In this document: piece by piece, positions 1,228 to 19,914 of the stretch | How the letters are laid out: the number at the start of each line of letters is the position of its first letter | Position numbering within the stretch: position 1 is the stretch's first letter | Origin: an uncultured virus (IMG/VR IMGVR_UViG_3300027126_000148) | Taxonomy: Duplodnaviria > Heunggongvirae > Uroviricota > Caudoviricetes | IMG/VR virus record: IMGVR_UViG_3300027126_000148 | DNA length: 20,000 bases | Direction: 5' to 3' (one strand) | The notes under the pieces: generated by a model | What the model was told of the DNA's origin: nothing | Seen by the model: only the letters and a program-made list of their open reading frames with translations | Databases searched by the model: none | Position numbers and translations under genes: made by a program

Positions 1228-1258
1228 AAAAAACCCCAGAGGGGTTACCTCTGGGGTT
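1228..1258 (-). terminator. Rho-independent terminator after the major capsid gene
   Basis: Perfect 11-bp stem AACCCCAGAGG / CCTCTGGGGTT with a 5-nt loop and a T-run on the minus strand. Confidence 0.85.
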
Positions 1259-1275
1259 AAAACTGCGATAGTTTT

Positions 1276-2427: not shown

Positions 2428-2463
2428 ATTAGTATATTAATTAGTTAGTTAAGTTATTGGTTA

Positions 2464-3027: not shown

Positions 3028-3056
3028 AGTATTTTCCTATTATTTATTTGTTTTGT

Positions 3057-3707: not shown

Positions 3708-4526
3708 ATTCTTTCTTTCGATAATTACATTAGATTCCAATGTTTGTGAAATTTCTTCTGCTTTTTGCTCAATAATTTGTTCAGACTCCGGTTTTTTAAC
3801 GCTAACACCGACAACATCGGCGGCAGGATTAGCAGTTAGTCCAACTCCAAGAGGGAGAACTCGACCCTTAATTTTACGGTAAATTAATTGGTTTTCATTG
3901 AGTCTTCCGCTGCCACCAAATCCGGTTAGTTTTCCTTTAATTTTTTCAATCTCTTCTTTGTCAGAAATGATAGTAGCATTTTCAATATTCTTTTCGCTTC
4001 CTTCTAGGACAGCTACTTCAAAATCATTATAACCCAATTCCCAAGAAGCACTGACCTTCATGTAATTGTTAGAAGTGGGGTCATTTGACTCTTCGATTGT
4101 ATTGGCGAGATCTTTATTAACGATCTTCCAAACAACACCGCCAAGAGTAATATTATAAGGCTCTTTTTTATCTTTGACTTGCTCTTCAGTAAGGGGAACA
4201 TCAGTTCCAAACTCAGAAAATCCTGCTGACAAAATAACACCAACAACATTTGCGCGATTGTGTTCAATATTAATTGGCTTATTAATGAAGTTTTTATATA
4301 CTTCAGTAGCAATAGACGAATCAATTACATCACCATTTTTATTAACACGATTTACGACACAAGCATTAAAAGCAATTGGCAAAAGATCCATATTAGACTC
4401 AGCATTGACTTCAGGAATAAAATTCCCTACATCAATTAGACTGGCTAATGATAGATACTTGTCTTTTTCTTCAGAGACTAATGGTCTGATTGAAGAACTA
4501 AATGTTGTAGAGAAGTCAAATTTCAT
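3057..4526 (-). CDS. Prohead maturation protease fused to a C-terminal coiled-coil scaffold
   Basis: N-terminal NKNGD, FINKPINIEH, SASWELG and GVGLTANPA motifs like HK97/herpes-type prohead proteases; E/K-rich coiled-coil C-terminal half; position before the capsid genes. Confidence 0.75.
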   Translation of the reverse strand: MKFDFSTTFSSSIRPLVSEEKDKYLSLASLIDVGNFIPEVNAESNMDLLPIAFNACVVNRVNKNGDVIDSSIATEVYKNFINKPINIEHNRANVVGVILSAGFSEFGTDVPLTEEQVKDKKEPYNITLGGVVWKIVNKDLANTIEESNDPTSNNYMKVSASWELGYNDFEVAVLEGSEKNIENATIISDKEEIEKIKGKLTGFGGSGRLNENQLIYRKIKGRVLPLGVGLTANPAADVVGVSVKKPESEQIIEQKAEEISQTLESNVIIERKNMKISEVSQITDELLKEATASSIRDFIGEQLKDASEKFAAEQKAKEDAIKNAEEKFASLSSDSENLKKELEALKQSLETLQQEKASKEKQELFSSRMAGLDEEFDLDTEDREVIANDIRDLDEDSFAAYKKKMGVLMKEKNKSYKASKMPKEEKKETMATEIQETVASTENATVVDDAISNGTQQNDVITAGVVNPSKTLKQKYQSAFNDEGFVITK

Positions 4527-4527
4527 G

Positions 4528-4824
4528 TTATTCTAGAAAATATGTAATACTACCTACGGTTGCGGTTGCAATAGCTATTCCAGAACTATCTGGAACTCTC
4601 AAAGGAGCAGAATAGTTGCAATTCCCTTGAGCTACATAAGCAAATATACTTCCACTTGCTGTAGCACTAGCATTTGCCAAAGTAAGATTAGCTTGAGTAC
4701 TTATATCAGTAATAAAAATTCTTGAATTGCCATTATTGGGTGGCTGAATCAAAACACCTGTTGTTGTAAAATTAACAGTTGTTGTTGGTACGGACGCAAT
4801 ACCATTTTGAATAAAAGATTTCAT
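4528..4824 (-). CDS. Small beta-rich hypothetical protein, possibly virion-associated
   Basis: 98 aa, T/S/A/G-rich; start overlaps the upstream stop (TAATG). Confidence 0.65.
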   Translation of the reverse strand: MKSFIQNGIASVPTTTVNFTTTGVLIQPPNNGNSRIFITDISTQANLTLANASATASGSIFAYVAQGNCNYSAPLRVPDSSGIAIATATVGSITYFLE

Positions 4825-5189
4825 TATTTTAAAGTTGTTAAATATTTAGTCTTATTTACACTTGCTAAAATTTCATCTCTAATATTAAGCAAGTCTGTAT
4901 CTTTTGCAGCATCCAATTGAGATGGTAAATCATTGCTCAAAAAGCCAATAAAAGCATCCATTGCTTGAACTGGACTAATAGATTTATAATTTTGCAAAGT
5001 TAAAACAAAAGAATCCTTAGCAATAATTCGACCATATTTACCCATGAAAACCTCTACAAATTCATCAATATAACCAGACAAAGAATCATAAAGCTCTCCA
5101 AAAGCTTCATGCTCAGAGAATCCATAGGTTTGCCAATGGAATATCTTTACTTGGTTTTGAAACTGTAACATTGAAGATAGAATATTCAT
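4824..5189 (-). CDS. Ferritin/Dps-like four-helix protein (DUF5856-like)
   Basis: FHWQT..FSEHEAFGELYD...IDEFVEVFMGKYGR...LLNIRDEIL...KYL matches the Dps-like HW...H...ELY...D...E pattern. Confidence 0.7.
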   Translation of the reverse strand: MNILSSMLQFQNQVKIFHWQTYGFSEHEAFGELYDSLSGYIDEFVEVFMGKYGRIIAKDSFVLTLQNYKSISPVQAMDAFIGFLSNDLPSQLDAAKDTDLLNIRDEILASVNKTKYLTTLK

Positions 5190-5190
5190 A

Positions 5191-6366
5191 TTATTTCCCT
5201 TTCTTATATTGCAGCAAGCAAGATTGGAATTTTTCTTTGTCAGTTCCCTCTTTAGAAGGGATGCATTTTTGAAGGAAGTCTTTGAAATTTTGACCTTCTG
5301 TTTCGCACATTGACTTATACTCTTCCTCTTCTTCGTAAGAAGCGTAGACTTGAGCGCGAGAGAGTTGGTCCATTGTTTTTGTTAGGACTTCTCCCTTTTT
5401 ATAAGTTGGGCCTTCGTTAGTTACTTCATATGAAATAACTTTACCCATTTGATTTGGCAAGTCTTTGATCTCTTTTACGATTCCTTCGCTGCCATAATGA
5501 TAACAGTTCTTATTTACATTTCGAACCTTCTGACCAACCATAAACATTGGTTCAGAACTCATATAATTAGCGTCAGACTCTTCGGCAAACATTACATAGT
5601 TATGAATCATTACCATGTAATCTTCAGTAATAGCAATCTTGCCTTGTAAGAATGACTCAGTTAAATTTTCTTTAACCTTTTCATCATTTAAAGCATTGAG
5701 AATGTTCTCTGCATGAGTTTTAATAGAATTTAAAGAGCCAACTGACATTTCTAAATATTCATTCTTGTACTCTTCCATTTCGCTCTCTTCGGATTCCATC
5801 TCGTCTTCAGGCTCCATCATTTCTTCGGCTTTTGATAAATCAGGCCAAATTTTTAAGAGTTCGCTTTGATCCCAAAGAGTCAAACCATCCCACTCTTCTT
5901 CGTTAGCTTGAGCTTTCTTTAAAGCGTCTTGCTTTGGATAGTCTTTTTCTCCGGGCTTTGCTGGCTTATAGTTCTTGCCGAGACGATCTTTCTTCTTTTG
6001 AATATTGTGCCAAAGACCTTTTCCAGCTTCTGTTTCTAAACTAAAGACCTCTTCTGAAGCTTTAACTGGAGAACCCGCCCTCCATTGATAGCATGACCAG
6101 TATTTGGCTTTCCATTTTGGTCCGGGGTTTTTGTCGCAGCCATGTCTTGCTCTAAAACTTTTTCTTCTAGCAGGATCATCTCTCTTGATCTCCATGTTAG
6201 GATCACCAAAGTTAACCTTTACAACATTTCCTTTGTCATTTTTGACATAAACAGAAAACTTTTTAGGCCCATCAGGAGTCCTGAATGGCTTATTTAATGT
6301 TTTCTTTTCTTTGTCTGCGGCGACGATTTTAGAAGAAATATCGATTTCTAATTCTTTGGTTTTCAT
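5191..6366 (-). CDS. Multidomain head-region protein (DUF6321-like basic N-terminus, acidic linker, SH3/KOW-like segment)
   Basis: KTLNKPFRTPDGPKKFSVYVK...VNFGDPNMEIKRDDPARRKSFRARHGC...YWSC; GLWHNIQKKK...PGEKDYP; FMVGQKVRNVN..CYHYGSEGIVKEI. Confidence 0.65.
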   Translation of the reverse strand: MKTKELEIDISSKIVAADKEKKTLNKPFRTPDGPKKFSVYVKNDKGNVVKVNFGDPNMEIKRDDPARRKSFRARHGCDKNPGPKWKAKYWSCYQWRAGSPVKASEEVFSLETEAGKGLWHNIQKKKDRLGKNYKPAKPGEKDYPKQDALKKAQANEEEWDGLTLWDQSELLKIWPDLSKAEEMMEPEDEMESEESEMEEYKNEYLEMSVGSLNSIKTHAENILNALNDEKVKENLTESFLQGKIAITEDYMVMIHNYVMFAEESDANYMSSEPMFMVGQKVRNVNKNCYHYGSEGIVKEIKDLPNQMGKVISYEVTNEGPTYKKGEVLTKTMDQLSRAQVYASYEEEEEYKSMCETEGQNFKDFLQKCIPSKEGTDKEKFQSCLLQYKKGK

Positions 6367-6367
6367 G

Positions 6368-6937
6368 TTAAATATATTCTAGCCAGTTTGCTTTTTCTTG
6401 TTCTGTATCCAAGTATAGATCATTCTCATCTTCAAAATCATAATCAAGATTATAGTCTTGAATATCATTATCTGCTTGAGAGAAATCACCATCATTTGGT
6501 TCCCAAGAACCTGTAACATCAATTTCTGAAGCTCTAGCTACATCACTATCAGCTTTGCGATAAGCATCTTTAACAGTTTTACCAGCCATCATTCTTAAGA
6601 AAGTATTCACACGGGCCATTGCCCATTGTCCTCTTGTTTTTCCGGGTCTATGGCTAGAACTAAAAGCTCCAGCGCCTCTACGATAAACTTTTTTTAGTTG
6701 ACTTAAGCTTACTTTCTTAGAATATTTGCTATTATGCTCTCTAACTTTAGACTTTAAAGCTTCAACTACTTTAGCAGAAAACTCTATTGCTTTATCGCTT
6801 TTTGTTCCTGCGCTACCAGAAGGATTTTTAGCAGAACCGCTGCGCTTTTCAGAAGGTTTGGCAGGGGTCTGAGCAGAGCTTTTAGGCCCAGACCTCTTTG
6901 ATTCTATAATTTCTATTTCTAAACCTTGTAGGTTCAT
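6368..6937 (-). CDS. Basic head-region protein with acidic tail (DUF5824-like core)
   Basis: LKKVYRRGAGAFSSSHRPGKTRGQWAMARVNTF motif; family name recalled, not searched. Confidence 0.6.
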   Translation of the reverse strand: MNLQGLEIEIIESKRSGPKSSAQTPAKPSEKRSGSAKNPSGSAGTKSDKAIEFSAKVVEALKSKVREHNSKYSKKVSLSQLKKVYRRGAGAFSSSHRPGKTRGQWAMARVNTFLRMMAGKTVKDAYRKADSDVARASEIDVTGSWEPNDGDFSQADNDIQDYNLDYDFEDENDLYLDTEQEKANWLEYI

Positions 6938-6945
6938 AATTTGTA

Positions 6946-6962
6946 GCTTATTATTTATACAC
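6946..6962 (-). promoter_or_regulatory. Candidate late promoter GTGTATAAATAATAAGC
   Basis: Motif starts 25 nt before the ATG at 6937 in a short intergenic gap. Confidence 0.55.
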
Positions 6963-6984
6963 TAAAAATTAACTATTAAGGAAA

Positions 6985-8259
6985 TTATAATGGCCCATTT
7001 GTATTAAAGTTTGTGTAACTTAATCCTTTTAACAATCCACTCATAAATAAACCATTAGGATGAGGATAAGAATTCATGTCCATATCACAGTAAAAACTAA
7101 AATCTAAAACAGCATTTGAACCGATTGAAGAGTCATAAGATAGGTCTTTAAATTTAGCTCCTCTAATATCGTAGCGAATAATAGTTTCGGAACTCTTATT
7201 CATCTTGATTGAGATGTCGTATTTAGATTCTGATTTTATATCTGACAAAAGATTTCCTGAATAGTTTAAGTTTCTATATATTGTAGAGAAAGAGCCTTCT
7301 ACAGTAATTGGAGTGTTTATTTGGCGATCTACTGGGTAAACATAGCCCAATGTTTTTAATGGTTCCCTTTCTAAAGGAATGTTAAAATTAAAACTTTGTA
7401 TAGCGGCATCTTGGATTATTAGATTAGACTTGTTTTTAGATGTTGAATTAGCGTCATAAATGTCAATCACGATATCGCCGGGGAGCAAAACAGAAATTGC
7501 ATTTCCAGTTTCCTCAAAAGCTGTATTATAAGTTGGAATATTAAACGTTATGCCGGTATTTAATGTTCCGCTCTTTGGTTCTAAATACGGAGAAACTACG
7601 TTTATTCCAGAAGAGTAATACAACACATTGTGTGCTGCATAATTTACTGTAGCTTTAGGGAAATCGTTAACTTGAGCTTGAACTCCATAAGAAGTAATAT
7701 AACAATTACCGAAAGCTAAGACCGGAAACCCAGAAATACTGTTACCAATTGCATCTGTATTATTTGGAGTAATTGTTAAAAATAGATTGCGCTGATCTCT
7801 GTATTTAAAAGGATACTTAAATGTATTATTTGTGGCTTGAGTTAAATCAGAGTTGAATGAATAGTTCTGGTCTCCAAAAGAAAACCCAGACAATAAATTA
7901 CCACTAGGAAAAACTTGCCCACCATCAAATTGATCTAAATTAGGAGGCCCAAGATTAACATAGAAGCCCATTCTGGCTTCGTTTCGCAGATCTTTAATGT
8001 TGTAATTGAAACTAAGGCTAATATCAGGAGGATTTAAAGTATAATCATAAATAGTAGAAGCATTTCCTATCTCTGAGAACCTAGAAGATTGAGTATTTAT
8101 CTGATAACTAAATTGATTAATTCTTTTAAGGGGCTGAATTAAATTATAAACCCCAGTTCTGAGCAGGTTGCCGTTAGGGTCAGAGAAAAAATAGCCACTC
8201 GCTGGAGCAGGTCCAACGAATAGCAATTCGTTATTATATATTACTCTGTTTGTAGCCAT
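6985..8259 (-). CDS. Virion structural protein, tail-tube-like
   Basis: 424 aa, N/S/F/Y-rich beta-type protein with two similar strand-loop segments (INQFSYQINTQSSRFSEIG...PPDISLSFNY and IQSFNFNIPLEREPLKTLG...PITVEGSFS); coupled to the portal gene by TAATG. Confidence 0.5.
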   Translation of the reverse strand: MATNRVIYNNELLFVGPAPASGYFFSDPNGNLLRTGVYNLIQPLKRINQFSYQINTQSSRFSEIGNASTIYDYTLNPPDISLSFNYNIKDLRNEARMGFYVNLGPPNLDQFDGGQVFPSGNLLSGFSFGDQNYSFNSDLTQATNNTFKYPFKYRDQRNLFLTITPNNTDAIGNSISGFPVLAFGNCYITSYGVQAQVNDFPKATVNYAAHNVLYYSSGINVVSPYLEPKSGTLNTGITFNIPTYNTAFEETGNAISVLLPGDIVIDIYDANSTSKNKSNLIIQDAAIQSFNFNIPLEREPLKTLGYVYPVDRQINTPITVEGSFSTIYRNLNYSGNLLSDIKSESKYDISIKMNKSSETIIRYDIRGAKFKDLSYDSSIGSNAVLDFSFYCDMDMNSYPHPNGLFMSGLLKGLSYTNFNTNGPL

Positions 8260-10148
8260 TAGATTTTGCTATGATAGAGCAAACTAGCCATGTAAGAATC
8301 AACTTGATGCTCGCAAGCGATATTATGAATCTCTTCTATTCTCTTTGGGTTTTTATCTACAGGAGTTTCAATGTATTCTCCTATTTTAGAGACCCAATTA
8401 GATTGATCTTCGTTTGCGACAATAACTTTAGTGATATCAAGGACTACTTCTTTTTGTCTTTCATTTAATTTCTTAAGTTTATGTTTTTTCTTTAAGAAAC
8501 CCTCTACTTCTGCTCCTAATTTACTTGTAGCTTCTACAATGTCTTTTAATTTCATGACACTGTAATTAGCTTTAGAAGAGGTGCCGATTGGCTTTACATT
8601 TTTTGTAGTTTGCTTGATGCCTGTGCTTCCTGCTGGTCTACCGGCTGCATCTATTTTTGGTCCACCGATTAAAGGCTGATAATATCCTTTATCTTTTAAG
8701 TCAACAAAAGCTGTTTGAGATTGCACTGACTCATCTGGAGTAGGCAATACTCCAGTTTCAATAGCTTTAAGACCTTCTTCAGGAGTAAGAACCCCAAGCT
8801 CAATAAGGCGAGTATAAATTCTGTTAAGATTTTGATCGCTCTTAAGATCCATATCTTCAAAGAATGGAGTTGGGAATACTTTGAATCCTATTTCTTTAGA
8901 AATCCTCTTAACTTCTGGCAATAAGAAGTCAGTAATAAAAGCTTGGCGAGCCTGTAATAATTTCTGCCCTAATAGAGATACTTTTGTACTAGCATTAGCG
9001 AATTTTTCATTACCAACAAGCACATTATTTAAGCCAATATTAATATCTTTATCGATGATCTCGTATTTCTTTGGATCTAAGATGTCAGCAATTTGAGGAA
9101 TGACGAATTCGGCTTTTGTAGTATAGTCAGCAATCAAGACTCTTCCAATAGACTGATTCGCAAATAAATTTTGCATCGTCTTTAAGTTCTCTTGGTTTAC
9201 TCCACCTTTATCTGGCTCTGCGCCCATTGTGACAAGAAGGATTACTTGCTGAATTGTTCTTGTAAGAGCCATGTCCATACGGCGCATTTCTATTTTTGCG
9301 CTAATATCTTCAAGAACAGGAAAACCCATTGGTACAGCGAAGGGTTCGTAATCTTGTTTCTTGTAGAATACGGCGTAGAACTTCTTTGTGTCTAAATGGA
9401 GCAAAACTGCCGTAGCTTTTCCTTTTAGAACTTGCTCTTTAACTAACGGATCAAGAGAATCCAATATCTCTTTGTCTTCTTCTGTTCTTGGATTTCTAAT
9501 TTGCTCAAGCTCGTAGTCAGTTAGAACCTTATAATACTGTCCTCTATTAAAAGACAAATTACCATTAACCTGAACGTCTGCTGGATTAATGATTATGTAT
9601 CTAGCAGGTAAAGAAACTCTTGCCGCCAAAGCTTGAGAACCGAAAACTTGGCTAATTTTAGACACATCCTCTTCTCTAATGGTAGTATCATATCTATAAA
9701 TAAAAACATTACCAGAACGATAATACTCTCTAAAGAACTTGTCTTGTAATGCAGTAATGTTTATCTTATTAAATAAGGCTTGGAAGAAATCTCTTGCGCT
9801 TTTATTCCCACCTTTAAGATGAATATTGCCGCAAGAAAGCTCTGACATTAGATCAATAGTATTTCTAAATAAACCAAAGTTATAGTAGGCTTTTTGGCAA
9901 AGAATTACTGTATCTCTGACATCAATATTTGATTTATTATAATTATAACCAGTGGCATAGTTAAATGGCACCATGCCGTCATCAATATTGCGAAAACGAT
10001 CTGTTCTCTCAATGGTTGATGCGGCGTTTCTGCGGCTCCTCGTTTCGGTAACTCTGCTTGCTACTCCGCCATGAGCAGGAGTAGAGCCTTCTACCATCAT
10101 TGGGGCGAAAGAATTTTCCGCAACTTTGTCTTTTTTAACCTTTGCCAT
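8259..10148 (-). CDS. Portal protein
   Basis: 629 aa directly downstream of TerL; FRNTIDLMSE...FFREYYRSGNVFIY...YIIINPADV...KKQDYEPFAVP pattern typical of portals. Confidence 0.8.
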   Translation of the reverse strand: MAKVKKDKVAENSFAPMMVEGSTPAHGGVASRVTETRSRRNAASTIERTDRFRNIDDGMVPFNYATGYNYNKSNIDVRDTVILCQKAYYNFGLFRNTIDLMSELSCGNIHLKGGNKSARDFFQALFNKINITALQDKFFREYYRSGNVFIYRYDTTIREEDVSKISQVFGSQALAARVSLPARYIIINPADVQVNGNLSFNRGQYYKVLTDYELEQIRNPRTEEDKEILDSLDPLVKEQVLKGKATAVLLHLDTKKFYAVFYKKQDYEPFAVPMGFPVLEDISAKIEMRRMDMALTRTIQQVILLVTMGAEPDKGGVNQENLKTMQNLFANQSIGRVLIADYTTKAEFVIPQIADILDPKKYEIIDKDINIGLNNVLVGNEKFANASTKVSLLGQKLLQARQAFITDFLLPEVKRISKEIGFKVFPTPFFEDMDLKSDQNLNRIYTRLIELGVLTPEEGLKAIETGVLPTPDESVQSQTAFVDLKDKGYYQPLIGGPKIDAAGRPAGSTGIKQTTKNVKPIGTSSKANYSVMKLKDIVEATSKLGAEVEGFLKKKHKLKKLNERQKEVVLDITKVIVANEDQSNWVSKIGEYIETPVDKNPKRIEEIHNIACEHQVDSYMASLLYHSKI

Positions 10149-10151
10149 AAG

Positions 10152-10169
10152 CCTAATAATTAATTACAC
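10152..10169 (-). promoter_or_regulatory. Candidate late promoter GTGTAATTAATTATTAGG
   Basis: Fills the 24-bp TerL-portal gap; nearly identical to the 514-531 motif. Confidence 0.6.
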
Positions 10170-10172
10170 ATT

Positions 10173-12014
10173 TTAAATTAAAATTGGTGTAAATCCCGCA
10201 GCTACTATTTTATTTTCAGTAGTCATAATGTCATTATAGCATTTAGAGCCCCATTTAGCTAACATTAAAGCAGTATAATTATCTTTTCTTGCTCTATTAG
10301 GAGAATTGGAACGCTTTAAGTGTTGAGGAAGGTCAAAATTAACAGACCCACGGCTGCTGGTAGTGAACTCAACTAGTGAGCATTGCTTCTTAGTGTTATA
10401 GACAAGCAAATCTTGGTGTTCAATTAGGTCTAACTTGTTCCAGTCTTTGTTTTCTTCTACGAAGATTATGTCTTCTGGTATTCTTTTATTTATTTCTTCA
10501 TTAAAGAAGGTTTCGTTAGCTACTGTCTTTGAAGCAAACCAGATTTTCTTATAGTCAATTGCCGCTTGTAGATTTTCATTACCTCTTCTAATGAAGGTAG
10601 TAGTGAATACTTGAGTTACTGCTATTTGTTTATTTTCAAGGTTATATTGACTCTTGGCTTTCTGAACCATCTTTGTGTATTCAATGCCTTCAAGATCGGA
10701 ATCGAAGTCAATAAACTTAATCTTCTCAGACTCTGAGTTTACGAATTGAGATTCATTATAAGTGTTGAAGAAAATATCAGCACCAGCATTATCACATATG
10801 ATATAAACAATATTAAAGCTAGTCATTAAGTAATGAAAGTATTTAATGTGAGTATTTAAACTGCCAAGACCAGCATAAGCATGAACGAGAACGTCATTTT
10901 TGTTTTCTCTGTCTATTTCCAAAATAGCCATTGCAAAATAGTCAGCATTTGGACTGTCGCTCATGTTGGGGTCCATTGCTAAGATATATTGCTTGCCGCT
11001 ATCTCCTCTAATTTGGGAGTGAGGTCTCTCTTCAAACTTAAGAGTGCATTCTTCCATCTTCTTCATGCTGAAGTAAGAGTCGCTACCATCAGTAAATTGA
11101 GCGCAATACTCTCTCAAGAAAGAAGCGTGAGAAGATCCGCCGTTTTGCGCCTCTTCTGTAATTGAAGAATCTATCATCTCTGGAGGAAGAGACTCATAGC
11201 TTAATTGAGAAACGAAATAAGTAGCACTTGTTGGCTCCTTTGAATAAATATTATCGCACCACTCTTTATAAGTCTTATAGAGGTTCTCAAAAGTATAAGA
11301 AGCAGAAGACAGAGCGATCATTTTGGAAGTATTCTTGAACTCCATGCGGTCAGCTTCAGTCATTGCGCCTTGTGCAATTAATTCATTCTCTTGTTCGCGA
11401 ATACTAATACGTTCTTTAATGTCTTGAGGCACGATCAAGAAGGGCATTAATACATTTTTGATGATGTCTTCTGGCAATAAGAGAAACTCATCAAGCACAA
11501 GAACATTAGCGCGGAAACCGCGAATCTTTTCGCCGCTTAGAGGAATAGCTTTTATTGAACCTTCGTTAATTGACCAGTCGTATTCATCATTACGCTTTGA
11601 CTTTGCGCCGAATGCTTGCATCAAAAGGTCTGCGCCTTTAGATTCGGTAATCTTTTCTATTGAATTGAAAATGCTTCTTGCTGTTCTGAAGGTTGGGCCA
11701 GCAATTAAGATTTTGCTCTTAGGTTCAAAGATGCATTGTAGGAAACAAAACACCGCAGCAGAGAAAGATTTAGAAGCACCGCGACCCCACACGTTCATGC
11801 AGAAATTTCGGTTCAACATTCCTTTAATTACAATCTCTTGATAAGGCCATAATTTTATACCAGAAATTAGCTCTGTAGTTATCCCTATATTTGAACGCAA
11901 AAACTTAGCTAAAGTTATCTTAGCTTCCTTATCTTCAAGAGTATCTTTTAGTCTAGAATATTCATCATTTAGATTTGGGATTATTCTATTGTATTTCTCT
12001 GGGGTATACCACAT
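10173..12014 (-). CDS. terL: Terminase large subunit
   Basis: LWPYQ adenine-binding motif, Walker A WGRGASKS, IRGFRANVLVLDEF Walker B, FLREYCAQF, RNase H-like ILAMDPN..DYFA and terminal RKDNYTALMLA. Confidence 0.92.
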   Translation of the reverse strand: MWYTPEKYNRIIPNLNDEYSRLKDTLEDKEAKITLAKFLRSNIGITTELISGIKLWPYQEIVIKGMLNRNFCMNVWGRGASKSFSAAVFCFLQCIFEPKSKILIAGPTFRTARSIFNSIEKITESKGADLLMQAFGAKSKRNDEYDWSINEGSIKAIPLSGEKIRGFRANVLVLDEFLLLPEDIIKNVLMPFLIVPQDIKERISIREQENELIAQGAMTEADRMEFKNTSKMIALSSASYTFENLYKTYKEWCDNIYSKEPTSATYFVSQLSYESLPPEMIDSSITEEAQNGGSSHASFLREYCAQFTDGSDSYFSMKKMEECTLKFEERPHSQIRGDSGKQYILAMDPNMSDSPNADYFAMAILEIDRENKNDVLVHAYAGLGSLNTHIKYFHYLMTSFNIVYIICDNAGADIFFNTYNESQFVNSESEKIKFIDFDSDLEGIEYTKMVQKAKSQYNLENKQIAVTQVFTTTFIRRGNENLQAAIDYKKIWFASKTVANETFFNEEINKRIPEDIIFVEENKDWNKLDLIEHQDLLVYNTKKQCSLVEFTTSSRGSVNFDLPQHLKRSNSPNRARKDNYTALMLAKWGSKCYNDIMTTENKIVAAGFTPILI

Positions 12015-12015
12015 A

Positions 12016-12954
12016 TTATAGCATTTTTAGGTCGTAGCAAAGCTGGAGATCGTATTTAAAAAAGTTCTCATCAGTAGAGAACATCTTTTCTATGATTCGA
12101 ACAGACTCTTTGCGCCCTTTTGCAAATAAGAATTGCACATGGGGATATTTCTGAATCAACTCTCTGACATTATGGAATATAAACTCAGGGTTTACCTTTG
12201 TAGCTTTCTTGTATACATGAGGAAGATAATTAAAAGACAGAGCATTACTTAAACTCTCTTCTACAATGATAACCATGTTAGCTTTGGCTTCGCTGGCTTT
12301 CTCAATCTCTCGACAAAACCTTTCGTAACCGGCGCTTAGTGTTCCAATGAAATCAGAAATAGACTTTCTCTCAAAGTAAAGCTTGCCATCATAACTTGGA
12401 TGACTAAACCCATAGTCTCCAAACTTAAGAGTACGAACTTCAGATGCCATATTAAATATAAACGGCTTCTGCTCTCGCGTATCAATGTAAATGATTGACC
12501 CTTTGGTTTGTAATGGTGCTAAATTATCTAAACTCTCTGGGTATATGTATTTATTTTTAAATCCAAGATCTCCAGTGAACTGATAATAATCACCAAAAAT
12601 TTCTTGTAAGTAAATAACGCTCGGGCTCAAGACACTGCGAAGCTCAACTTGAGATGGAGTATATGCTAGACCTTTCTTTTCTTTTCTCTTGATGAGAAAG
12701 TCTTTGCAGTACTCTTTCTGTTTCTCTAGTGATTGAGCTTTGAGCCAGTTTTTTAGATTATTTTTATTGTTAAAGTCAGTATTAAAGTACTGCTCTTTAT
12801 TCTTGTAAATAATTATGGAGTTATCGAAAGCATCATAGCGAGGATGATGTTGTTGATAGTACTCTATTACTCTTAGTTTGTGAGCTTTGAGATGGCGATT
12901 AAAGTCTGCATCTACCTCATAAGCTTTTTGACATATTTTACATGTTTCAGCCAT
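12016..12954 (-). CDS. C2H2 zinc finger plus ERCC4 (XPF/Mus81-family) nuclease
   Basis: CKIC-x12-HLKAH at the N-terminus; IYIDTREQ...GDY...FERKSISDF...IIVEE is the ERCC4 GDxnERKxxxD signature. Confidence 0.85.
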   Translation of the reverse strand: MAETCKICQKAYEVDADFNRHLKAHKLRVIEYYQQHHPRYDAFDNSIIIYKNKEQYFNTDFNNKNNLKNWLKAQSLEKQKEYCKDFLIKRKEKKGLAYTPSQVELRSVLSPSVIYLQEIFGDYYQFTGDLGFKNKYIYPESLDNLAPLQTKGSIIYIDTREQKPFIFNMASEVRTLKFGDYGFSHPSYDGKLYFERKSISDFIGTLSAGYERFCREIEKASEAKANMVIIVEESLSNALSFNYLPHVYKKATKVNPEFIFHNVRELIQKYPHVQFLFAKGRKESVRIIEKMFSTDENFFKYDLQLCYDLKML

Positions 12955-14065
12955 TTAACACCTCGTCCTCTGAAATTCCTAAGATACGGCACTTGATTTC
13001 ATCCATTGTAGAGAGGCGATCTATTTCATTCTTTACCATCGCCTTTCTCCTTTCAGCAAGTTTTAATAATTGCATACGAGATTCTTCTTCTTTCCACATT
13101 TGAACTAGATTAAGGATGCTGGCGTTCTCTTTTATTTGCTTGCTAAGACGATCACTTCGCTTTACCTTAAGGTCATTAAGAAGTTTTTGTTGGCGAATGG
13201 TCGATTGGTTATATTCGTCTCTTGCTCCACTGATTGCTTCAATGAGAGCCATTGGCAATTTGCCGCCGCCATCAATTTCTACATCAATTTGATTTTGAAG
13301 AGTTTGAATTGTCTCTTGAATATTAGCAGAGATAACTACTTCAGTAGCTAGAACAATGTATTGATCTACTTCTTCTTGAGTGAGGTCTGGTTTATCAAAT
13401 GTATAACGAACAAAAGAGCTTTCAAATAACTCACGATCAATGTTAGAAGAGTAACTATTTATCTGATGCAAGAAACGATAAGTGTGCATGTATCCAATGA
13501 TAGCATTAACAGAAGCCTTCTGGCGTGAAGTGACTTTATCTTTATCAATACCTTCATGAACATACTTGTTGATTCGAAAAAGCATGCGCTCAAAAGTCTT
13601 TGGCGGCATGTATTGAGAATCTGCAAGACTCTCTGTATCTCTTTGTGAGACTGGACCTGCTTGAATTACTTTCTGGTCAAGAGTCTTAATGAAATCAATT
13701 ACAGTACGAGTTTCTTGACTGAGGCTAGTAAGGTTTTGATTATTGAAAATACTTTTAGTAATCTCAAGTGCGCCCATTGAACCTGCATTGTTAGCAGTAA
13801 ACTCTTTTTGTTCTGGAGATAGTTCAATCTTATCTTTTGCCAAGTACTCATACGAAGCCCTTGCTTTAATTTGTCTTGTGGATAAGAACTCTTTAACTTT
13901 CTTGCCGTGCCAACTTCTACCGTCTGCGCCTTCAATGTTAGGAAAAGCAACCCTAACAAGTTCAAGCAAAGAAGGAGGATTAGTAGGGCGATTGTTCCAC
14001 TCATTTAAAATTGCCAGTCGCTGTTGGTCATTAAGTTCTTGAGGTTGGTTTTCATTTTCAGCCAT
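12947..14065 (-). CDS. Probable terminase small subunit or packaging-associated helical protein
   Basis: 372 aa, helical/coiled-coil C-terminus, two genes upstream of TerL with 8-bp overlaps on both sides. Assignment is positional. Confidence 0.45.
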   Translation of the reverse strand: MAENENQPQELNDQQRLAILNEWNNRPTNPPSLLELVRVAFPNIEGADGRSWHGKKVKEFLSTRQIKARASYEYLAKDKIELSPEQKEFTANNAGSMGALEITKSIFNNQNLTSLSQETRTVIDFIKTLDQKVIQAGPVSQRDTESLADSQYMPPKTFERMLFRINKYVHEGIDKDKVTSRQKASVNAIIGYMHTYRFLHQINSYSSNIDRELFESSFVRYTFDKPDLTQEEVDQYIVLATEVVISANIQETIQTLQNQIDVEIDGGGKLPMALIEAISGARDEYNQSTIRQQKLLNDLKVKRSDRLSKQIKENASILNLVQMWKEEESRMQLLKLAERRKAMVKNEIDRLSTMDEIKCRILGISEDEVLNG

Positions 14066-14750
14066 AAATTTCTACTTCTCCATTCACAATGCACTTCTTA
14101 GCTTTTACAAGTATAGAACGCTTTAAGTTCTTTATTTGCTTGTATCCGGGGGAACGATTCTTTTCAGTGGTCTTGAATCCTAGAACTTTTGCAACTTCTT
14201 CTTCTCTCTGATTTCTCAAGCAAAGCATTTCATAAACTATCCACTCTGCTGGCTTTAATACTTTTCTTAATGCTGATGATAAACTCTGAGTACTTCTTAG
14301 AAGGTCAAAACCTTCGTTAGTCATGTCGTGAACTTCTTTAATATGATTCTCAAGAGGGAGGGTTACTTTTGTATTGAAAGCGTCTTTCTTATTGTTTTCC
14401 CAATGAGCATACAAGGGGCACTTCTTACACTGTTCTCCATATATTGAACAAGAATCATCCCACTCTGCCGCCGCACACTTCAAACAAGGTCTGGCATAAT
14501 TACCATAGTTGTTTCTTATAATGTTTTTTATTTGATTGGATATGATAATGTTTAACCAAGGGGCAAGGGGTTTTTTCTGATCGTATAGACTCCATTTTTT
14601 ATAAATATGAATCCTCAATATCTGCTCAACGTCCTCGAAATCAATCCAAGACAATGCGGCAAGGTTCCACTTGTTTTTGCGTTTGCGAATTTCTTCGTCT
14701 ACGATAGCAATGTTCTTTTCAAAGGTTTCTTTTTGGACTTTTTGAGCCAT
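14058..14750 (-). CDS. Phage sigma70-family (ECF-like) sigma factor with a Cys-rich insertion
   Basis: Region 2-like DFEDVEQILRIHIYKKWSLYD...LAPWLNIIISNQIKNIIR; region 4-like LKPAEWIVYEMLCLRNQREEEVAKVLG; CLKC...C...CKKC between them. Confidence 0.75.
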   Translation of the reverse strand: MAQKVQKETFEKNIAIVDEEIRKRKNKWNLAALSWIDFEDVEQILRIHIYKKWSLYDQKKPLAPWLNIIISNQIKNIIRNNYGNYARPCLKCAAAEWDDSCSIYGEQCKKCPLYAHWENNKKDAFNTKVTLPLENHIKEVHDMTNEGFDLLRSTQSLSSALRKVLKPAEWIVYEMLCLRNQREEEVAKVLGFKTTEKNRSPGYKQIKNLKRSILVKAKKCIVNGEVEIYG

Positions 14751-14751
14751 T

Positions 14752-15153
14752 TTATTTTTGCCTTAATGTACCGGCTTCTTTTTTAAACATTTTAAGAGTA
14801 TCTTTTACAGAGAGACCTTCTGCTCCTCTTGCTCCAAAACCTGCCATGCTGTCTGGCATTGTTGCGGCAATCTTTGCAAGAGATTCTTTTCTTGGGCCTT
14901 CCGCTTGATACTCAACTTCTAAACCATTTTTTAAATCAGGAATTGATGCATCATTTTCTTCATCATCGCTTTCATCATCGTCCTGCTCGTCATACTCTTC
15001 TTGAGCGCGAACTTTGTTTTCTCTTGCCTTTTTATCTTGTGGCTTTTCTACGATAACACCATAGAATGCTGTGCCACACGCAGAGCAAAACTTTGGCTTT
15101 GCTTGAGCGTACAAATTAGGATTTCCACATTGAGAGCAGTAAATTTTTTGCAT
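14752..15153 (-). CDS. Zinc-ribbon protein with an acidic tract
   Basis: YCSQCG...KFCSACG followed by a D/E run. Confidence 0.75.
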   Translation of the reverse strand: MQKIYCSQCGNPNLYAQAKPKFCSACGTAFYGVIVEKPQDKKARENKVRAQEEYDEQDDDESDDEENDASIPDLKNGLEVEYQAEGPRKESLAKIAATMPDSMAGFGARGAEGLSVKDTLKMFKKEAGTLRQK

Positions 15154-15166
15154 AATTCATTAATTT

Positions 15167-15195
15167 ATTATAGTTTAATAACGGTAAAAAAGCAA
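15167..15195 (-). promoter_or_regulatory. Sigma70 promoter TTGCTT-N17-TATAAT for the zinc-ribbon/sigma/terminase operon
   Basis: Plus strand AAGCAA 15190-15195 and ATTATA 15167-15172, 17-bp spacer. Confidence 0.65.
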
Positions 15196-15211
15196 GTGTA
15201 ATTGTAATAGA
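15196..15211 (+). promoter_or_regulatory. Candidate late promoter GTGTAATTGTAATAGA
   Basis: Motif starts 16 nt before the ATG at 15212 and abuts the divergent -35 box. Confidence 0.5.
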
Positions 15212-15487
15212 ATGAAGTATTCATTTAAGAATTACGAAAAAGTTGAATACACCATTAATTGGGTCAAACCCCCTAAAGGGTGCTACGGTATATGCGATTC
15301 CCCAGAGATGGAGAATCCAAAGATAAAGATTGACCCTAAATTAACCAAACAAAAGACAGTCAACATTCTAATACATGAAGTATTACACGCATTTTTCTGG
15401 CAAGAATCAGAAACAAAAGTAACTAAATGCGCGAACACTTTATCAAGACTCATCCACCAAAGGATGAAACAAAAGTTTAATGAATGA
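15212..15487 (+). CDS. Small HExxH zinc metallopeptidase-like protein
   Basis: YGIC...IKIDPKL...ILIHEVLHAFF...E. Confidence 0.7.
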   Translation: MKYSFKNYEKVEYTINWVKPPKGCYGICDSPEMENPKIKIDPKLTKQKTVNILIHEVLHAFFWQESETKVTKCANTLSRLIHQRMKQKFNE

Positions 15488-16199
15488 TTGACTTGTATTT
15501 AGTAATCTTATCAACAATAAAGCGAGTAATACCACTTCTCATAATATCTTCTTGCCCAAGCTTAAAGTATTGAATGCCATTGTCTCGGCTATCTTGGTCT
15601 TGGAAGATATCACAGAACTCTTTGAACCCAGACTTCTTGCCTAGGTCATTTTGCATAATAGTATCACCACAAATAAATAGCTTACTAAATTTACCCATTC
15701 GGGTTGCCGCCGTTACAAGAGAATCAAACATCATGTTCTGACCCTCATCCAAAATAACGGAATTAACGTTAAAGGTATAGCCGCGAAGCAGAGAAACAGG
15801 GTAAGTTTTGATCCTTTCTTGCTTATTTAGTAATTCGATGCTGGATTTATTTAGTAATTCTTCTAGCTTATCAAATAGAGGTACGTTATAGAAGAAAGTC
15901 TTTTCGTCTAAGTCGCCAGTTAAGAAGCCAGTTTGACCATCTGTGCTTTGAATTAGGGATCGGATATATACAATATCAGAAATCTTTTTAGCCTTTAGTA
16001 ATTCTAGCGAGCAATAAACACTCAGTAGAGTCTTGGCTGTGCCGGGAAGCCCATCTAGAATGATTATATTAGTAGACTTGTCTAAGGCCGCTTGAATAAT
16101 TTGTTCTTGTTTCGGGGTCCATTTTAATTTACGAATTTCAAAGTCATCTTTTACTTTGTCTTTTTGAGAAACGTGGGGGGAGTTATCTTTTTTTGACAT
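15477..16199 (-). CDS. phoH: PhoH family ATPase
   Basis: GLPGTAKT P-loop, GFLTGDLDEK, LRGYTF, ILDEGQN, TRMG, CGD..QNDL, DIMRS. Confidence 0.92.
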   Translation of the reverse strand: MSKKDNSPHVSQKDKVKDDFEIRKLKWTPKQEQIIQAALDKSTNIIILDGLPGTAKTLLSVYCSLELLKAKKISDIVYIRSLIQSTDGQTGFLTGDLDEKTFFYNVPLFDKLEELLNKSSIELLNKQERIKTYPVSLLRGYTFNVNSVILDEGQNMMFDSLVTAATRMGKFSKLFICGDTIMQNDLGKKSGFKEFCDIFQDQDSRDNGIQYFKLGQEDIMRSGITRFIVDKITKYKSIIH

Positions 16200-16208
16200 T
16201 TTAATTAG

Positions 16209-16240
16209 CCTTACTATTTTAATTACATGTATTATATATA
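16209..16240. promoter_or_regulatory. Overlapping divergent ATGTA motifs (palindrome TACATGTA 16224-16231)
   Basis: Minus strand ATGTAATTAAAATAGTAAGG before phoH; plus strand ATGTATTATATATA directly before the ATG at 16241. Confidence 0.45.
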
Positions 16241-16582
16241 ATGAGGAACAAATTTCAAGTTACAGTTGTGAACCCCAAGACTTGCAGGAAGAAGATTCGT
16301 TGTGAGGGGTGCGAACTGGCGTATAGTAAAGAGGATTATTTATTATTCTTCACTGTTCGTAAGCTTGTTTATTTTAATATGATTGCTGAAGATGGGAAGC
16401 AAATGAAGATTTGCGACTCTTGTTTAGTGTCTCTCGCTTCGATGACTTGCGCGAAATATGATTTACCATATATTACTATTATAATTAAAGGCGAGGAAAA
16501 TACAAAACAAATAAATATCGAGTATAGTGGAGACAAATCTTTTGAGCAAGAATTACTAAAAGTCTTTAACAAGATCAATTAA
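16241..16582 (+). CDS. Hypothetical Cys-rich protein (CEGC...CDSC)
   Basis: 113 aa ORF filling the gap; two CxxC motifs. Confidence 0.6.
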   Translation: MRNKFQVTVVNPKTCRKKIRCEGCELAYSKEDYLLFFTVRKLVYFNMIAEDGKQMKICDSCLVSLASMTCAKYDLPYITIIIKGEENTKQINIEYSGDKSFEQELLKVFNKIN

Positions 16583-17068
16583 TTTTTGCCGCGATTCTTC
16601 TGTTCTCTGATCTGGAGTAGTGATATTTTTATAATACTGCATTACTCCAATCATAGAATTAATATTGTTTTTATTTTTTAATGCATTACCTTCGAAAGAG
16701 ACAATCTTAACATTGTCTGGTACATAGCCCTTATTTGGGTCTATCCTATCTAATGATGCAGATCTTTTATTATCTACTCCTGACTTATATAGTATTTCGC
16801 AGCCCAAAATGGGGCAGATATTATTTTTAATCTTTATTAAATCCGCAAGAGTGAGGTTGAACTCTATATTTTTCTTTTTTGAACGCATCTTGGCGGCTCT
16901 CAATATTACTTTTCTTAAATAGTAATTTTCGCCATCCATAGGGTCTTCCATTTTTTCCTTTTGTCTCTCGTATTCTAGAGAATAACAACAAGTATTGCAC
17001 TTGTCTTTTGATCTACTGAATTCTGTATCTTCTTTCTCAGCTTGACACACAGAACATTTGATTAACAT
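16556..17068 (-). CDS. HNH-like endonuclease with an N-terminal zinc-binding region
   Basis: CSVC...CNTC, FNLT..DL...CPILG, SASLDRIDPNKGYVPDNVKIVS..N..K. Confidence 0.75.
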   Translation of the reverse strand: MLIKCSVCQAEKEDTEFSRSKDKCNTCCYSLEYERQKEKMEDPMDGENYYLRKVILRAAKMRSKKKNIEFNLTLADLIKIKNNICPILGCEILYKSGVDNKRSASLDRIDPNKGYVPDNVKIVSFEGNALKNKNNINSMIGVMQYYKNITTPDQRTEESRQKLIDLVKDF

Positions 17069-17083
17069 TAGATATATCTACAC
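17069..17083 (-). promoter_or_regulatory. Candidate late promoter GTGTAGATATATCTA
   Basis: Motif starts 15 nt before the ATG at 17068. Confidence 0.45.
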
Positions 17084-17415
17084 AAGCTATATCTAAAAAA
17101 GGTATTTTTTGGGAAGGGCTCCGGGGATTTTTTGACCTTGCAAACTCTTCAGGTCTTCCTTTTGGTCTTATTTTTTGAGAAATAGGGGGGTCTTATATAG
17201 GGATAGATATTAATACATAGACAGATAGAATAGTAAGTATTTAGTAATTAAGGATAGAATGATAGATTCTTTTAATTGGTATATTAATAAAAGAAGGTTT
17301 TATTGATTAAGGGCAGAATGATTTTTAGACCCCCCCGCCCCCGTATTTGAAAAGTCTCTGGCAATATTTTCATAAATTGGGGGCAATGTCAATAGCATTT
17401 TCTGGCAATCTTCGC

Positions 17416-17445
17416 AAAAAAAATCCCCCTCTTTCGAAGGGGATT
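17416..17445 (-). terminator. Rho-independent terminator of 17465..17890
   Basis: Minus strand AATCCCCTTC-GAAA-GAGGGGGATT followed by a T-run. Confidence 0.85.
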
Positions 17446-17464
17446 CGATTGACTTTCGCTCGCC

Positions 17465-17890
17465 TTAGTCGGCCAGATTGGCGACATCTTCAACGGGGAA
17501 CGTGAGGAACTTAGGCGGAGTCTTTGCCTTTTTGTAAAGGGTAATCGTCGCCAGTTCTTCAGCGGTAGCAGGACGACCGTCCACAAGATAGCCAATCGTC
17601 TTCATGGCAGAAGACGGAAGCGCGGCAACGTAGTGACGACCAGTAACAGGGTGCTTGACCAGTCCGGGCTTGACCCAGACGAACCACGGCTTGTCACCGG
17701 GTGCGTCTTCATGGCGATTCCCGTAGGAATCAGGACCGGCCAATGTCACAACCACGCGGTGATTCTTCATCACGCGGCCAAGTAAAGGGTTCAAAGGAAG
17801 GCCAGATCTGCCGCCTGTCTTCATGGAATGTTCCCCACGAAGGAGAACTGTGCAGATGCTACCTGCACGAATTTTATTGAGGTCAATCAT
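17465..17890 (-). CDS. Hypothetical protein, GC-rich paralogue of 18294..18740
   Basis: 141 aa; shares TGGRSGLPLN, GRV, TLAG, WF..VK.G.VKH..TG..Y.A.LP, LVDG and KFLT with 18294..18740; own terminator. Confidence 0.85.
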   Translation of the reverse strand: MIDLNKIRAGSICTVLLRGEHSMKTGGRSGLPLNPLLGRVMKNHRVVVTLAGPDSYGNRHEDAPGDKPWFVWVKPGLVKHPVTGRHYVAALPSSAMKTIGYLVDGRPATAEELATITLYKKAKTPPKFLTFPVEDVANLAD

Positions 17891-17931
17891 GATGCGTTGG
17901 TTTTTTAGTGCCGCTCACTCGCGACGGAAAG

Positions 17932-17960
17932 AGAGTCGCACGGTTCCCATTTGATTGCAA
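17932..17960 (-). promoter_or_regulatory. Possible sigma70-type promoter TTGCAA-N17-GACTCT for 17465..17890
   Basis: Good -35 and 17-bp spacing with a TG extension, weak -10; A/T tract upstream. Confidence 0.35.
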
Positions 17961-17986
17961 CCCACTTTCTCAAATAATTTTCGCCC

Positions 17987-18076
17987 CTAGGCTGGCACAC
18001 TCTTTGCTCCCCAGCACGTTTCATGCCAAGTCTAGGTTGGCACACTCTTTGCTCCCCAGCAAGTCCCATGCCAAGT
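17987..18076. repeat. Two tandem 45-bp repeats, each a head-to-head pair of sigma-54-type boxes
   Basis: CTAGGCTGGCACACTCTTTGCTCCCCAGCACGTTTCATGCCAAGT / CTAGGTTGGCACACTCTTTGCTCCCCAGCAAGTCCCATGCCAAGT. Confidence 0.9.
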
Positions 18077-18192
18077 CCGTGGAAAGGATAGTTTCCCAAT
18101 CTGGGGTCCCCAATTCGAAAAACTATCGTCGCCCATAGCTTGGCATGATTCCTGCTCTGGCATGGTTCCTGCTCCCAGCATAGACTATGCCA
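17993..18192. promoter_or_regulatory. Cluster of seven sigma-54 (RpoN) -24/-12 type boxes TGGCAY-N6-TGCT
   Basis: +17993-18008, -18013-18028, +18038-18053, -18058-18073, +18141-18156, +18158-18173, -18177-18192; all have exact GG-N10-GC spacing. Confidence 0.75.
18087..18127. repeat. Dyad element copy 1
   Basis: GATAGTTT-CCCAATC-TGGGGTCCCCA-ATTCGAA-AAACTATC, centred at 18107. Confidence 0.9.
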
Positions 18193-18257
18193 AGTGCCCG
18201 TTAACGTAGAAAATTAAAGTAGATTTACTTCTCGTATATATATAAGTACATGTTAAA

Positions 18258-18287
18258 TTGTCATAGTCAGTTTGGCTCTTATATAAA
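18258..18287 (+). promoter_or_regulatory. Possible sigma70-type promoter TTGTCA-N18-TATAAA for 18294..18740 (leaderless)
   Basis: -35 at 18258-18263, -10 at 18282-18287, ATG 7 nt later. Confidence 0.4.
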
Positions 18288-18293
18288 TACAAC

Positions 18294-18740
18294 ATGATTA
18301 ATATAAATACAATCAAGGCGGGGCATATTGCTACTGTTTTGATGCAGGGTGAATATAAATTAAACACTGGCGGTCGCTCCGGTCTTCCCTTGAATGAATA
18401 CAAGGGTCGTGTGACAAGAGCTTATCGTTTTGCGATAACGCTTGCGGGTGAGGAAACGTATAACAATAAATACCCTGATTCAGTCGGCAAACCTAATTGG
18501 TTTGAGTTTGTGAAGGATGGTGTTGTTAAACATAAGACTACCGGCCAATTGTATTTGGCTGGGCTTCCCACCAATAGCAAAAAGAATAGGTTTGACCTAT
18601 TGGTAGACGGTCAACCTATCACAGAAGAGCAGTATAACTATATACAAAAGTATCGGAGTGACAAAGAGGAAGCCAAGTTTCTCACTATTGCAATTGACAA
18701 TGTGATAAACGTAGAAGATCCTGCAACATACGTTGACTGA
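18294..18740 (+). CDS. Hypothetical protein, AT-rich paralogue of 17465..17890
   Basis: 148 aa; hand alignment gives 48/92 identities without gaps over the N-terminal part. Confidence 0.85.
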   Translation: MININTIKAGHIATVLMQGEYKLNTGGRSGLPLNEYKGRVTRAYRFAITLAGEETYNNKYPDSVGKPNWFEFVKDGVVKHKTTGQLYLAGLPTNSKKNRFDLLVDGQPITEEQYNYIQKYRSDKEEAKFLTIAIDNVINVEDPATYVD

Positions 18741-19334: not shown

Positions 19335-19373
19335 ATAGTTTTTGACTTTGGGGTCCCCAAAACTATAAACTAT
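19335..19373. repeat. Dyad element copy 2
   Basis: ATAGTTT-TTGACTT-TGGGGTCCCCA-AAACTAT-AAACTAT, centred at 19354. Confidence 0.9.
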
Positions 19374-19406
19374 GAAAACAGTGATAAATCACTAGTAATA
19401 CTATTA

Positions 19407-19458
19407 TTTGGCCTTTATTTGCGTAATATTTGCGTAATGTTTGATTAATATTTGACAC
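19407..19458. repeat. Degenerate 11-bp tandem repeat (TTTG every 11 bp)
   Basis: TTTGGCCTTTA TTTGCGTAATA TTTGCGTAATG TTTGATTAATA TTTGACAC. Confidence 0.7.
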
Positions 19459-19821: not shown

Positions 19822-19837
19822 TGGCACGGTCCTTGCT
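19822..19837 (+). promoter_or_regulatory. Sigma-54-type box TGGCACGGTCCTTGCT
   Basis: Essentially the RpoN consensus TGGCACG-N4-TTGCW, 5 bp from dyad copy 3. Confidence 0.75.
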
Positions 19838-19842: not shown

Positions 19843-19881
19843 ATAGTTTCCAGATCTGGGCTCCCCAAAAGCCAAAACTAT
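19843..19881. repeat. Dyad element copy 3
   Basis: ATAGTTT-CCAGATC-TGGGCTCCCCA-AAAGCCA-AAACTAT, centred at 19862. Confidence 0.9.
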
Positions 19882-19914
19882 AAAAAAACCCCGTTATACT
19901 AATATAACGAGGTT
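19882..19914 (-). terminator. Rho-independent terminator of a minus-strand unit lying to the right
   Basis: Minus strand AACCTCGTTATA-TTAG-TATAACGGGGTT followed by a T-run. Confidence 0.8.

Follow-up and report, generated by a model that had tools for sequence, protein, structure and literature searches.

Genomic context of the array

The window, meaning the whole 20,000-nucleotide stretch of DNA that was analysed, is a fragment of a tailed-phage genome in which domain matches identified a large terminase, PhoH and an endonuclease VII-like protein, and in which positions 14058–14750 encode a protein with a sigma-70 region-2 match. Positions 1–17222 were 100 % identical to an IMG/VR record whose end precedes the array described here, and the DNA and RNA runs containing the stretch carry a riverine label. 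No isolate phage had a DNA match to the window; by protein comparison, the best relatives of the large terminase were Bacillus phage terminases, at no more than 24 % identity. Cluster names yielded no host, and the cellular-genome matches to the head-to-head box pair described below came with scattered MAG titles and short contigs. A Shine-Dalgarno-like motif was found in 0 of 23 gene starts in the window (40 nt upstream of each, on crude ORF calls), which together with the GC content of 37 % is no more than a hint of a Bacteroidota-like host. A tRNA scan of the window gave 0 matches.

The array occupies the spacer between two divergent paralogues, P0001 and P0002, which are 46 % identical to each other (Table 1). 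Homologous arrays in two related records (G002 and G003) are flanked by the same divergent gene pair, and the paralogue family comprises 70 clusters in public data. Searches of the family against Pfam, PHROG and PDB sequences returned no match, and its AlphaFold model (pLDDT 74) had no Foldseek match at E≤0.001; the best VIA-align score, Z 4.8 to small beta-barrels, was under the noise level of that tool. The DNA of the left paralogue is approximately 45–48 % GC, compared with approximately 34–36 % in its surroundings.

Table 1. Features of the array and its surroundings in the window. Predicted starts were placed 19 bp downstream of the motif centre, the rule given in an excerpt of Bonocora et al. 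(PMC4591121).
Feature	Position	Strand	Remarks
Left paralogue P0001, 141 aa	17465..17890	-	Own terminator 17446-17421; unnamed family
Sigma-54-type box 1	17993..18008	+	TGGCACACTCTTTGCT; predicted start 18019, rightward
Sigma-54-type box 2	18013..18028	-	Head-to-head with box 1, gap CCCC; predicted start 18002, leftward
Sigma-54-type box 3	18038..18053	+	Identical to box 1; predicted start 18064
Sigma-54-type box 4	18058..18073	-	Partner of box 3, gap CCCC; predicted start 18047
39-bp double palindrome, copy 1	18088..18126	.	Outer arms ATAGTTT/AAACTAT, inner arms TGGGG-T-CCCCA; marks the dyad of the locus
Sigma-54-type box 5	18141..18156	+	14 nt from palindrome; predicted start 18167
Sigma-54-type box 6	18158..18173	+	17-nt tandem copy of box 5; predicted start 18184
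Sigma-54-type box 7	18177..18192	-	Head-to-head with box 6, gap CCC; predicted start 18166
Conserved A+T-rich spacer	18193..18293	+	Ends in TATAAATA (18282-18289), 5 nt before ATG
Right paralogue P0002, 148 aa	18294..18740	+	46 % identical to P0001; unnamed family
39-bp double palindrome, copy 2	19335..19373	.	Between two convergent terminators, without sigma-54 box
Sigma-54-type box 8, unpaired	19822..19837	+	TGGCACGGTCCTTGCT; predicted start 19848, within third palindrome copy
39-bp double palindrome, copy 3	19843..19881	.	5 nt after box 8
Terminator-like hairpin of minus-strand unit	19887..19914	-	Faced by box 8

Architecture of the locus

Exact matches to TGGCAY-N6-TGCT numbered 8 in the window against 0.07 expected, a count reached in 0 of 200 shuffles; seven of them lie within 17993–18192 and the eighth is isolated. 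When one mismatch was allowed, 18 boxes were found in the window against 11.0 expected, placing the 10 non-exact ones at chance level. The first-pass annotation had described seven sigma-54-type boxes in 200 bp, with three head-to-head pairs separated by 3–4 C and two boxes in tandem 1 nt apart, and this description was accurate throughout: all seven boxes are in place, the gaps within the pairs are 4, 4 and 3 C, and the tandem boxes have the spacing given. Part of the repetition stems from local duplication: a duplicated 45-nt unit makes box 3 a copy of box 1, and box 6 matches box 5 at 94 % over 17 nt. The variation among spacers is for that reason weaker than it appears when judged in the window alone.

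The central palindrome is exactly 14 nt from the nearest box on either side (box 4 or box 5), which gives dyad symmetry to the entire locus. The predicted starts of boxes 4 and 5 each lie about 60 nt downstream of its centre, and the outermost outward starts are likewise symmetric, with 112 nt between that of box 2 and the left paralogue's ATG and 110 nt between that of box 6 and the ATG of the right one. A co-oriented gene is present downstream of boxes 2, 4, 5 and 6 (110–247 nt to the paralogue ATGs) and of none of boxes 1, 3, 7 and 8. Downstream of box 8, as of its homologues, come a minus-strand terminator and a convergent gene, so that a short RNA at most would be expected from these boxes.

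In total, 64 distinct copies of the palindrome were found across 55 stretches, the window contributing three; copies are also present in loci L170–L224. A box lies 5–7 nt upstream in 7 of the 64, as at 19822/19843, and 33–51 nt away in a further 21; the other 36 have no box within 70 nt and often stand immediately 3′ of a terminator hairpin. The offset between the palindrome and an inward-facing box was 33–34 nt in 15 copies. Along record G002 the palindrome recurs about every 0.7–2.5 kb. Both outer and inner arms are constant, and the intervening stretches vary in sequence at fixed length. Since no consistent RNA pairing was seen in these stretches, the palindrome is likely to be a protein site, with a phage regulator as its likely ligand.

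Beside the second palindrome copy, positions 19380–19458 hold a 14-bp palindrome (AGTGATAAATCACT) and five TATTTG-like motifs approximately 11 nt apart. This module lies between two convergent terminators, and the same module follows many palindrome copies in relatives.

Conservation and recognition of the boxes

The sigma-54 consensus is given as TGGCACN5-7TTGCT in an excerpt of PMC12316311, and the boxes of the array have GG and GC exactly 10 bp apart within TGGCAC-N5-TTGCW. A scan of IMG/VR (2.9 million viral contigs) for the head-to-head pair returned at least 131 stretches, with 613 strict boxes among those listed. Among the matches listed, 336 boxes lay outside any search seed, and at the positions left unconstrained these agree with the sigma-54 consensus, having C or T at position 6 in 95 % of cases, G at position 7 in 73 %, T at position 12 in 69 %, T or A at position 16 in 88 % and a T immediately ahead of the box in 64 %. 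The 617-box set from the matches listed agrees with these preferences.

Conservation was also assessed among homologous arrays. In 12 distinct copies of the left half, the blocks TTGGCA, TGCT, AGCA and TGCCAA are invariant and the spacers and linkers vary, a pattern repeated in an alignment of four genomes. Right of the palindrome, close relatives have 2, 3 or 4 boxes. Between the two boxes of a pair, the 7-nt spacers agree no better than between shuffled partners (2.36 against 2.71 of 7 positions), so that each box is maintained individually and not as one arm of a hairpin. The earlier argument that fixed blocks with varying spacers betray selection is thus upheld across relatives, and carries less force within the window, given the local duplication there. 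Taken with the exact counts and the consensus match of the 336 boxes, the invariant blocks of the 12 copies bear out the view that these are sigma-54-type boxes under selection in the phage.

The same motif recurs in several lineages that have no common neighbouring gene. The largest neighbouring family was present in 12 of 77 loci (76 from IMG/VR and the window; 748 ORFs in 484 clusters). A single motif across unrelated phages suggests a reader common to their hosts, and sigma-54 is the known reader of this motif. On these sequence grounds, the boxes are probably genuine docking sites for the host sigma-54 RNA polymerase. Actinomycetota are reported to be almost entirely without rpoN, and cyanobacteria are not known to have it.

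Genes for sigma-54 itself and for an activator were sought in five related records. Sigma54_DBD had no match, so that a sigma-54 gene was not recovered, and Sigma54_activat (PF00158) had a single match, scoring 12.6 bits alone and 23 with its frame neighbours, which is over the family cut-off. By eye, the matching protein resembles a RuvB-type ATPase and is without the GAFTGA loop, and the five records therefore appear to hold no convincing activator gene.

Distribution in viral and cellular genomes

The head-to-head pair was recovered from at least 131 viral stretches, compared with 46 matches in 596 billion bases of bacterial and archaeal genomes, and the reversed-pattern control gave 0 in the 2.9 million viral contigs. 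The cellular figure compares with about 11 expected by chance (our own arithmetic, with equal base frequencies), and several of the 46 matches are multi-box arrays on short MAG contigs. The density of seven boxes in 200 bp had no match in the scan of the 596 billion cellular bases. Head-to-head pairing is a phage trait, and the earlier impression that the arrangement is unusual was correct. The same two boxes in tandem at equal gaps occurred in 52 stretches, some of which are 18-nt periodic runs, so that this comparison is a loose one. L305 and other tandem loci have up to 12 boxes at an 18-nt period, and these are possibly coding repeats rather than sigma-54 sites.

Two complete relatives from a different lineage have their boxes concentrated in a single region of small genes, with 8 of 8 inside 3.6 kb of a 153-kb genome and 9 of 11 inside 3.7 kb of a 161-kb genome, and the reversed control gave 0 in each. 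A pair was situated within 300 nt of a contig end in 17 of 127 loci (L048, L005, L021, L046 and 13 more), reflecting either repeats that break assemblies or arrays near genome ends.

Array clusters among the matches listed were assigned to gene gaps using crude ORF calls, giving 27 divergent, 13 convergent and 35 tandem gaps; a further 9 clusters at the edges of loci were excluded. The baseline, taken from every pair of adjacent ORFs in these loci, was 110 divergent, 110 convergent and 349 tandem. The clusters thus favour divergent gaps (P=0.0005 against the baseline; P=0.019 for divergent over convergent). Unpaired boxes had no orientation bias on the same ORF calls, a co-oriented gene start being present for 16 of 127 and for 10 of 127 when flipped (P=0.30).

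Two arrangements depart from that of the window. At L026:3780-3990, five exact and two degenerate boxes, all co-oriented and 24–46 nt apart, are located upstream of one ORF; the exact ones come first, in steps of 26–46 nt. Where the window has the 39-bp palindrome, this relative has a different repeated element, and the ORF behind its boxes was considered as a member of the paralogue family and set aside at an hhalign probability of only 3 %. L165 (G004) and L166 (G005) belong to another lineage, in which a short hairpin of the CCTTACGAYATTGTAAGG type comes after every box and precedes a canonical, co-directional TTGACT-N17-TATAAT promoter, so that the boxes sit approximately 50 nt upstream of strong sigma-70-type promoters.

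Transcript evidence

Metatranscriptome contigs from four runs cover both paralogues (17459–17913 and 18296–18731) and the genes to the right. The assembled RNA contigs span neither 17914–18295 nor 16500–17440, and such contig gaps carry no evidential weight. The latter interval holds most of the endonuclease VII-like gene.

Contigs from two runs both end at 17913, having passed the left ATG by 23 nt and leaving 89 nt to the start predicted at 18002, and three contigs begin at 18296, 18302 and 18312, just past the right ATG and TATAAATA. That two contigs stop at 17913 hints, weakly, at expression of the paralogues from promoters near their start codons, and the message of the right paralogue, with a contig beginning at 18296, may be leaderless. 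The RNA contigs give no support for firing of the boxes. The sequence TATAAATA, which we take to be the T4 late-promoter motif, has entries at 18282–18289 and 18302–18309. The sigma-70-type promoters that the first-pass annotation had allowed for the flanking genes were not recovered: the window contains 7 consensus matches against 5.8 expected, and none is upstream of either gene in the right direction.

Possible functions of the array

From the motif, its conservation, its geometry and its phage-specific pairing we infer binding by sigma-54, the start sites, dependence on an activator and a role for the palindrome, and we tentatively favour, ahead of the alternatives below, a set of interleaved, activator-dependent bidirectional sigma-54 promoters. 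Each head-to-head pair would constitute one compact bidirectional promoter, on which a polymerase could face left or right and never both at once. The predicted starts within the three pairs are on opposite strands, 17, 17 and 18 bp apart, and transcription would proceed outward; because the leftward start is to the left of the rightward one, polymerases would depart in opposite directions and never meet, competing only for approximately 55 bp before firing. Pair gaps among the matches listed from other phages range over 2–8 nt, with 23, 40, 29 and 26 cases at 2, 3, 4 and 5 nt, and these four gaps predict starts 19–16 bp apart. The objection that the boxes are too crowded for ordinary promoters accordingly does not follow, since the predicted starts diverge in the topology of a bidirectional promoter and the members of a pair exclude one another at binding without colliding.

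At the level of the locus, the arrangement is an inverted duplication running from the leftward paralogue through two pairs, the palindrome, and one box with one pair to the rightward paralogue. Three leftward and four rightward promoters would result, the innermost outward ones symmetric about the palindrome and the outermost reaching the two ATGs at nearly equal distances, and a phage regulator would probably act at the palindrome. An enhancer-binding ATPase would be required for firing, whether supplied by the host or as a phage factor that our searches did not recognise. Several observations count against firing: no convincing activator or Sigma54_DBD was found in the five related records, single boxes are not oriented towards genes, box 8 and its homologues face a terminator, the RNA contigs end short of the predicted left start, and 13 clusters lie in convergent gaps and 35 in tandem ones. 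In cellular genomes sigma-54 sites serve as promoters, and the pairing is likewise taken not to exceed chance there, which also tells against a promoter function.

An unlikely but serious alternative is that the sites never fire, closed complexes of sigma-54 or its holoenzyme simply accumulating on them as the phage genome multiplies, so that the array would act as a sponge or decoy for scarce sigma-54 or would occlude neighbouring promoters. The phage-specificity of the pairing would suit such a function, as would the turnover of box number among close relatives, the co-oriented row of boxes in L026, the want of a convincing activator gene among related records and the indifference of single boxes to gene direction. 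Occlusion of overlapping promoters by sigma-54 is on record, in a reference cited in the excerpted text of PMC4591121, and a motive would exist if the host were Flavobacteriia-like, chaperone genes there being reported as sigma-54-dependent in the excerpt of PMC12316311. Against this, overlapping sites presumably cannot both carry holoenzyme, so that pairing would add little capacity. The arrays also favour divergent gaps, and a pure sink would have no use for their constant spacing from the palindrome or for their symmetric placement relative to the two ATGs. No earlier case of DNA acting as a decoy for a sigma factor turned up in our literature search. The roadblock that the first-pass annotation had also proposed is disfavoured, since repression by an RNAP:sigma-54 roadblock was tested and ruled out in E. 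coli (PMC4591121). In its strongest form, which we consider somewhat less probable still, the head-to-head arrays would be a DNA-encoded sink in which hundreds of near-consensus, self-occluding sites trap polymerase in dead-end closed complexes. The host sigma-54 regulon would then be shut off as the phage genome multiplies, and in a Bacteroidota-type host the affected regulon would include chaperones and proteases.

A reader other than sigma-54 is improbable. The array might serve a phage DNA-binding protein as a signal for packaging, replication or recombination, with the likeness to sigma-54 sites coincidental, and the pairs close to contig ends in 17 of 127 loci, the dyad-symmetric locus with its A+T-rich flank and the location of one lineage's arrays within 3 kb of an ORF read by eye as a terminase are all compatible with this. 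Repeats at contig ends are, however, also an assembly effect, and the GC skew of the window has no turning point at the array and no origin signal. Phage-specific readers normally have lineage-specific sites, whereas here the bipartite motif and six further consensus positions recur in lineages without a common neighbouring gene, and unpaired boxes retain both blocks at the same spacing. The remaining possibility, that the pairs matter as RNA or DNA structure (hairpins or cruciforms, for example as processing or termination signals) and not as protein sites, is the most remote of those considered. The 216-nt stretch does fold at −83.2 kcal/mol compared with a shuffle mean of −58.0 (z −5.8), but there is no covariation, because the stems consist only of the invariant blocks. 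The spacers of partner boxes, which resemble each other no more than in shuffled partners, the range of gaps within pairs, from 2 to 8 nt, and the 0 matches from an Rfam search of the window also speak against a structural role.

Significance and comparison with known systems

Phage transcription is taught as a takeover of sigma-70 polymerase or as the work of sigma factors or polymerases of the phage itself. That lytic phages might use the enhancer-dependent sigma-54 polymerase is essentially undescribed, judging from our literature search, which found no sigma-54 promoters or arrays in phages and returned instead phage proteins acting on the sigma-54 polymerase and an indirect effect of rpoN. 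The latter links rpoN to phage resistance through glutamine and RpoS and not through phage promoters (PMC8744999). What is seen here is a canonical sigma-54 motif that is conserved, confined to one control region and set in a non-cellular arrangement; the viral stretches concerned number at least 131 and come from several lineages. Should the sites fire, early expression would be coupled to a signal of a host ATPase, for instance starvation or stress affecting the envelope or RNA, and the pair would be a natural compact bidirectional sigma-54 promoter. If they are silent, the array would be the first sigma-factor decoy made of DNA.

With enhancer-dependent −24/−12 promoters the array shares the exact GG-N10-GC geometry and the extended consensus. 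It differs from them in belonging to a phage, in having neither an activator gene nor a known activator site in related records, and in that each outward box is interleaved with an inward partner. There is also a likeness to divergent sigma-54 pairs that share one upstream activator site, of which zraP/zraSR is presumably an example: here the innermost outward boxes flank a palindrome about 60 nt upstream of both predicted starts.

Phage engagement of the sigma-54 host polymerase, as proposed here, is described for the bEBP-like Htm of a Mosigvirus (bioRxiv 10.64898/2026.10.06.757011), and Xp10 P7 and T7 Ocr are reported as phage factors acting on the same polymerase. All three are proteins, unlike the DNA element described here, and the related records yielded none of this kind. 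The PeSL promoter/stem-loop cassettes of T4-type phages, as outlined in excerpts of PMC2839356 and PMC4122927, are likewise repeated regulatory cassettes between small genes in a variable region. The sequence of the array differs from that of PeSL, no sigma-70 early promoter was recognised in it, and a box precedes the palindrome at 5–7 nt in only the minority of copies noted above.

Bacterial sigma-70 bidirectional promoters offer a parallel in layout to the promoter reading that we favour. Their divergent starts are 7–25 bp apart with a mode of 18 according to the available excerpts of Warman et al. (bioRxiv 10.1101/2020.01.31.928960; PMC12825309), and the 17–18 bp predicted here falls within this range. 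In both cases elements on opposite strands stand side by side and binding at one excludes binding at the other. As described in those excerpts, the sigma-70 promoters arise from the symmetry of the −10 hexamer, whereas each pair in the array consists of two complete, non-symmetric sigma-54 boxes with 2–8 nt between them, and sigma-70 consensus matches are not above chance. A further difference is that firing at the array would need an ATPase.
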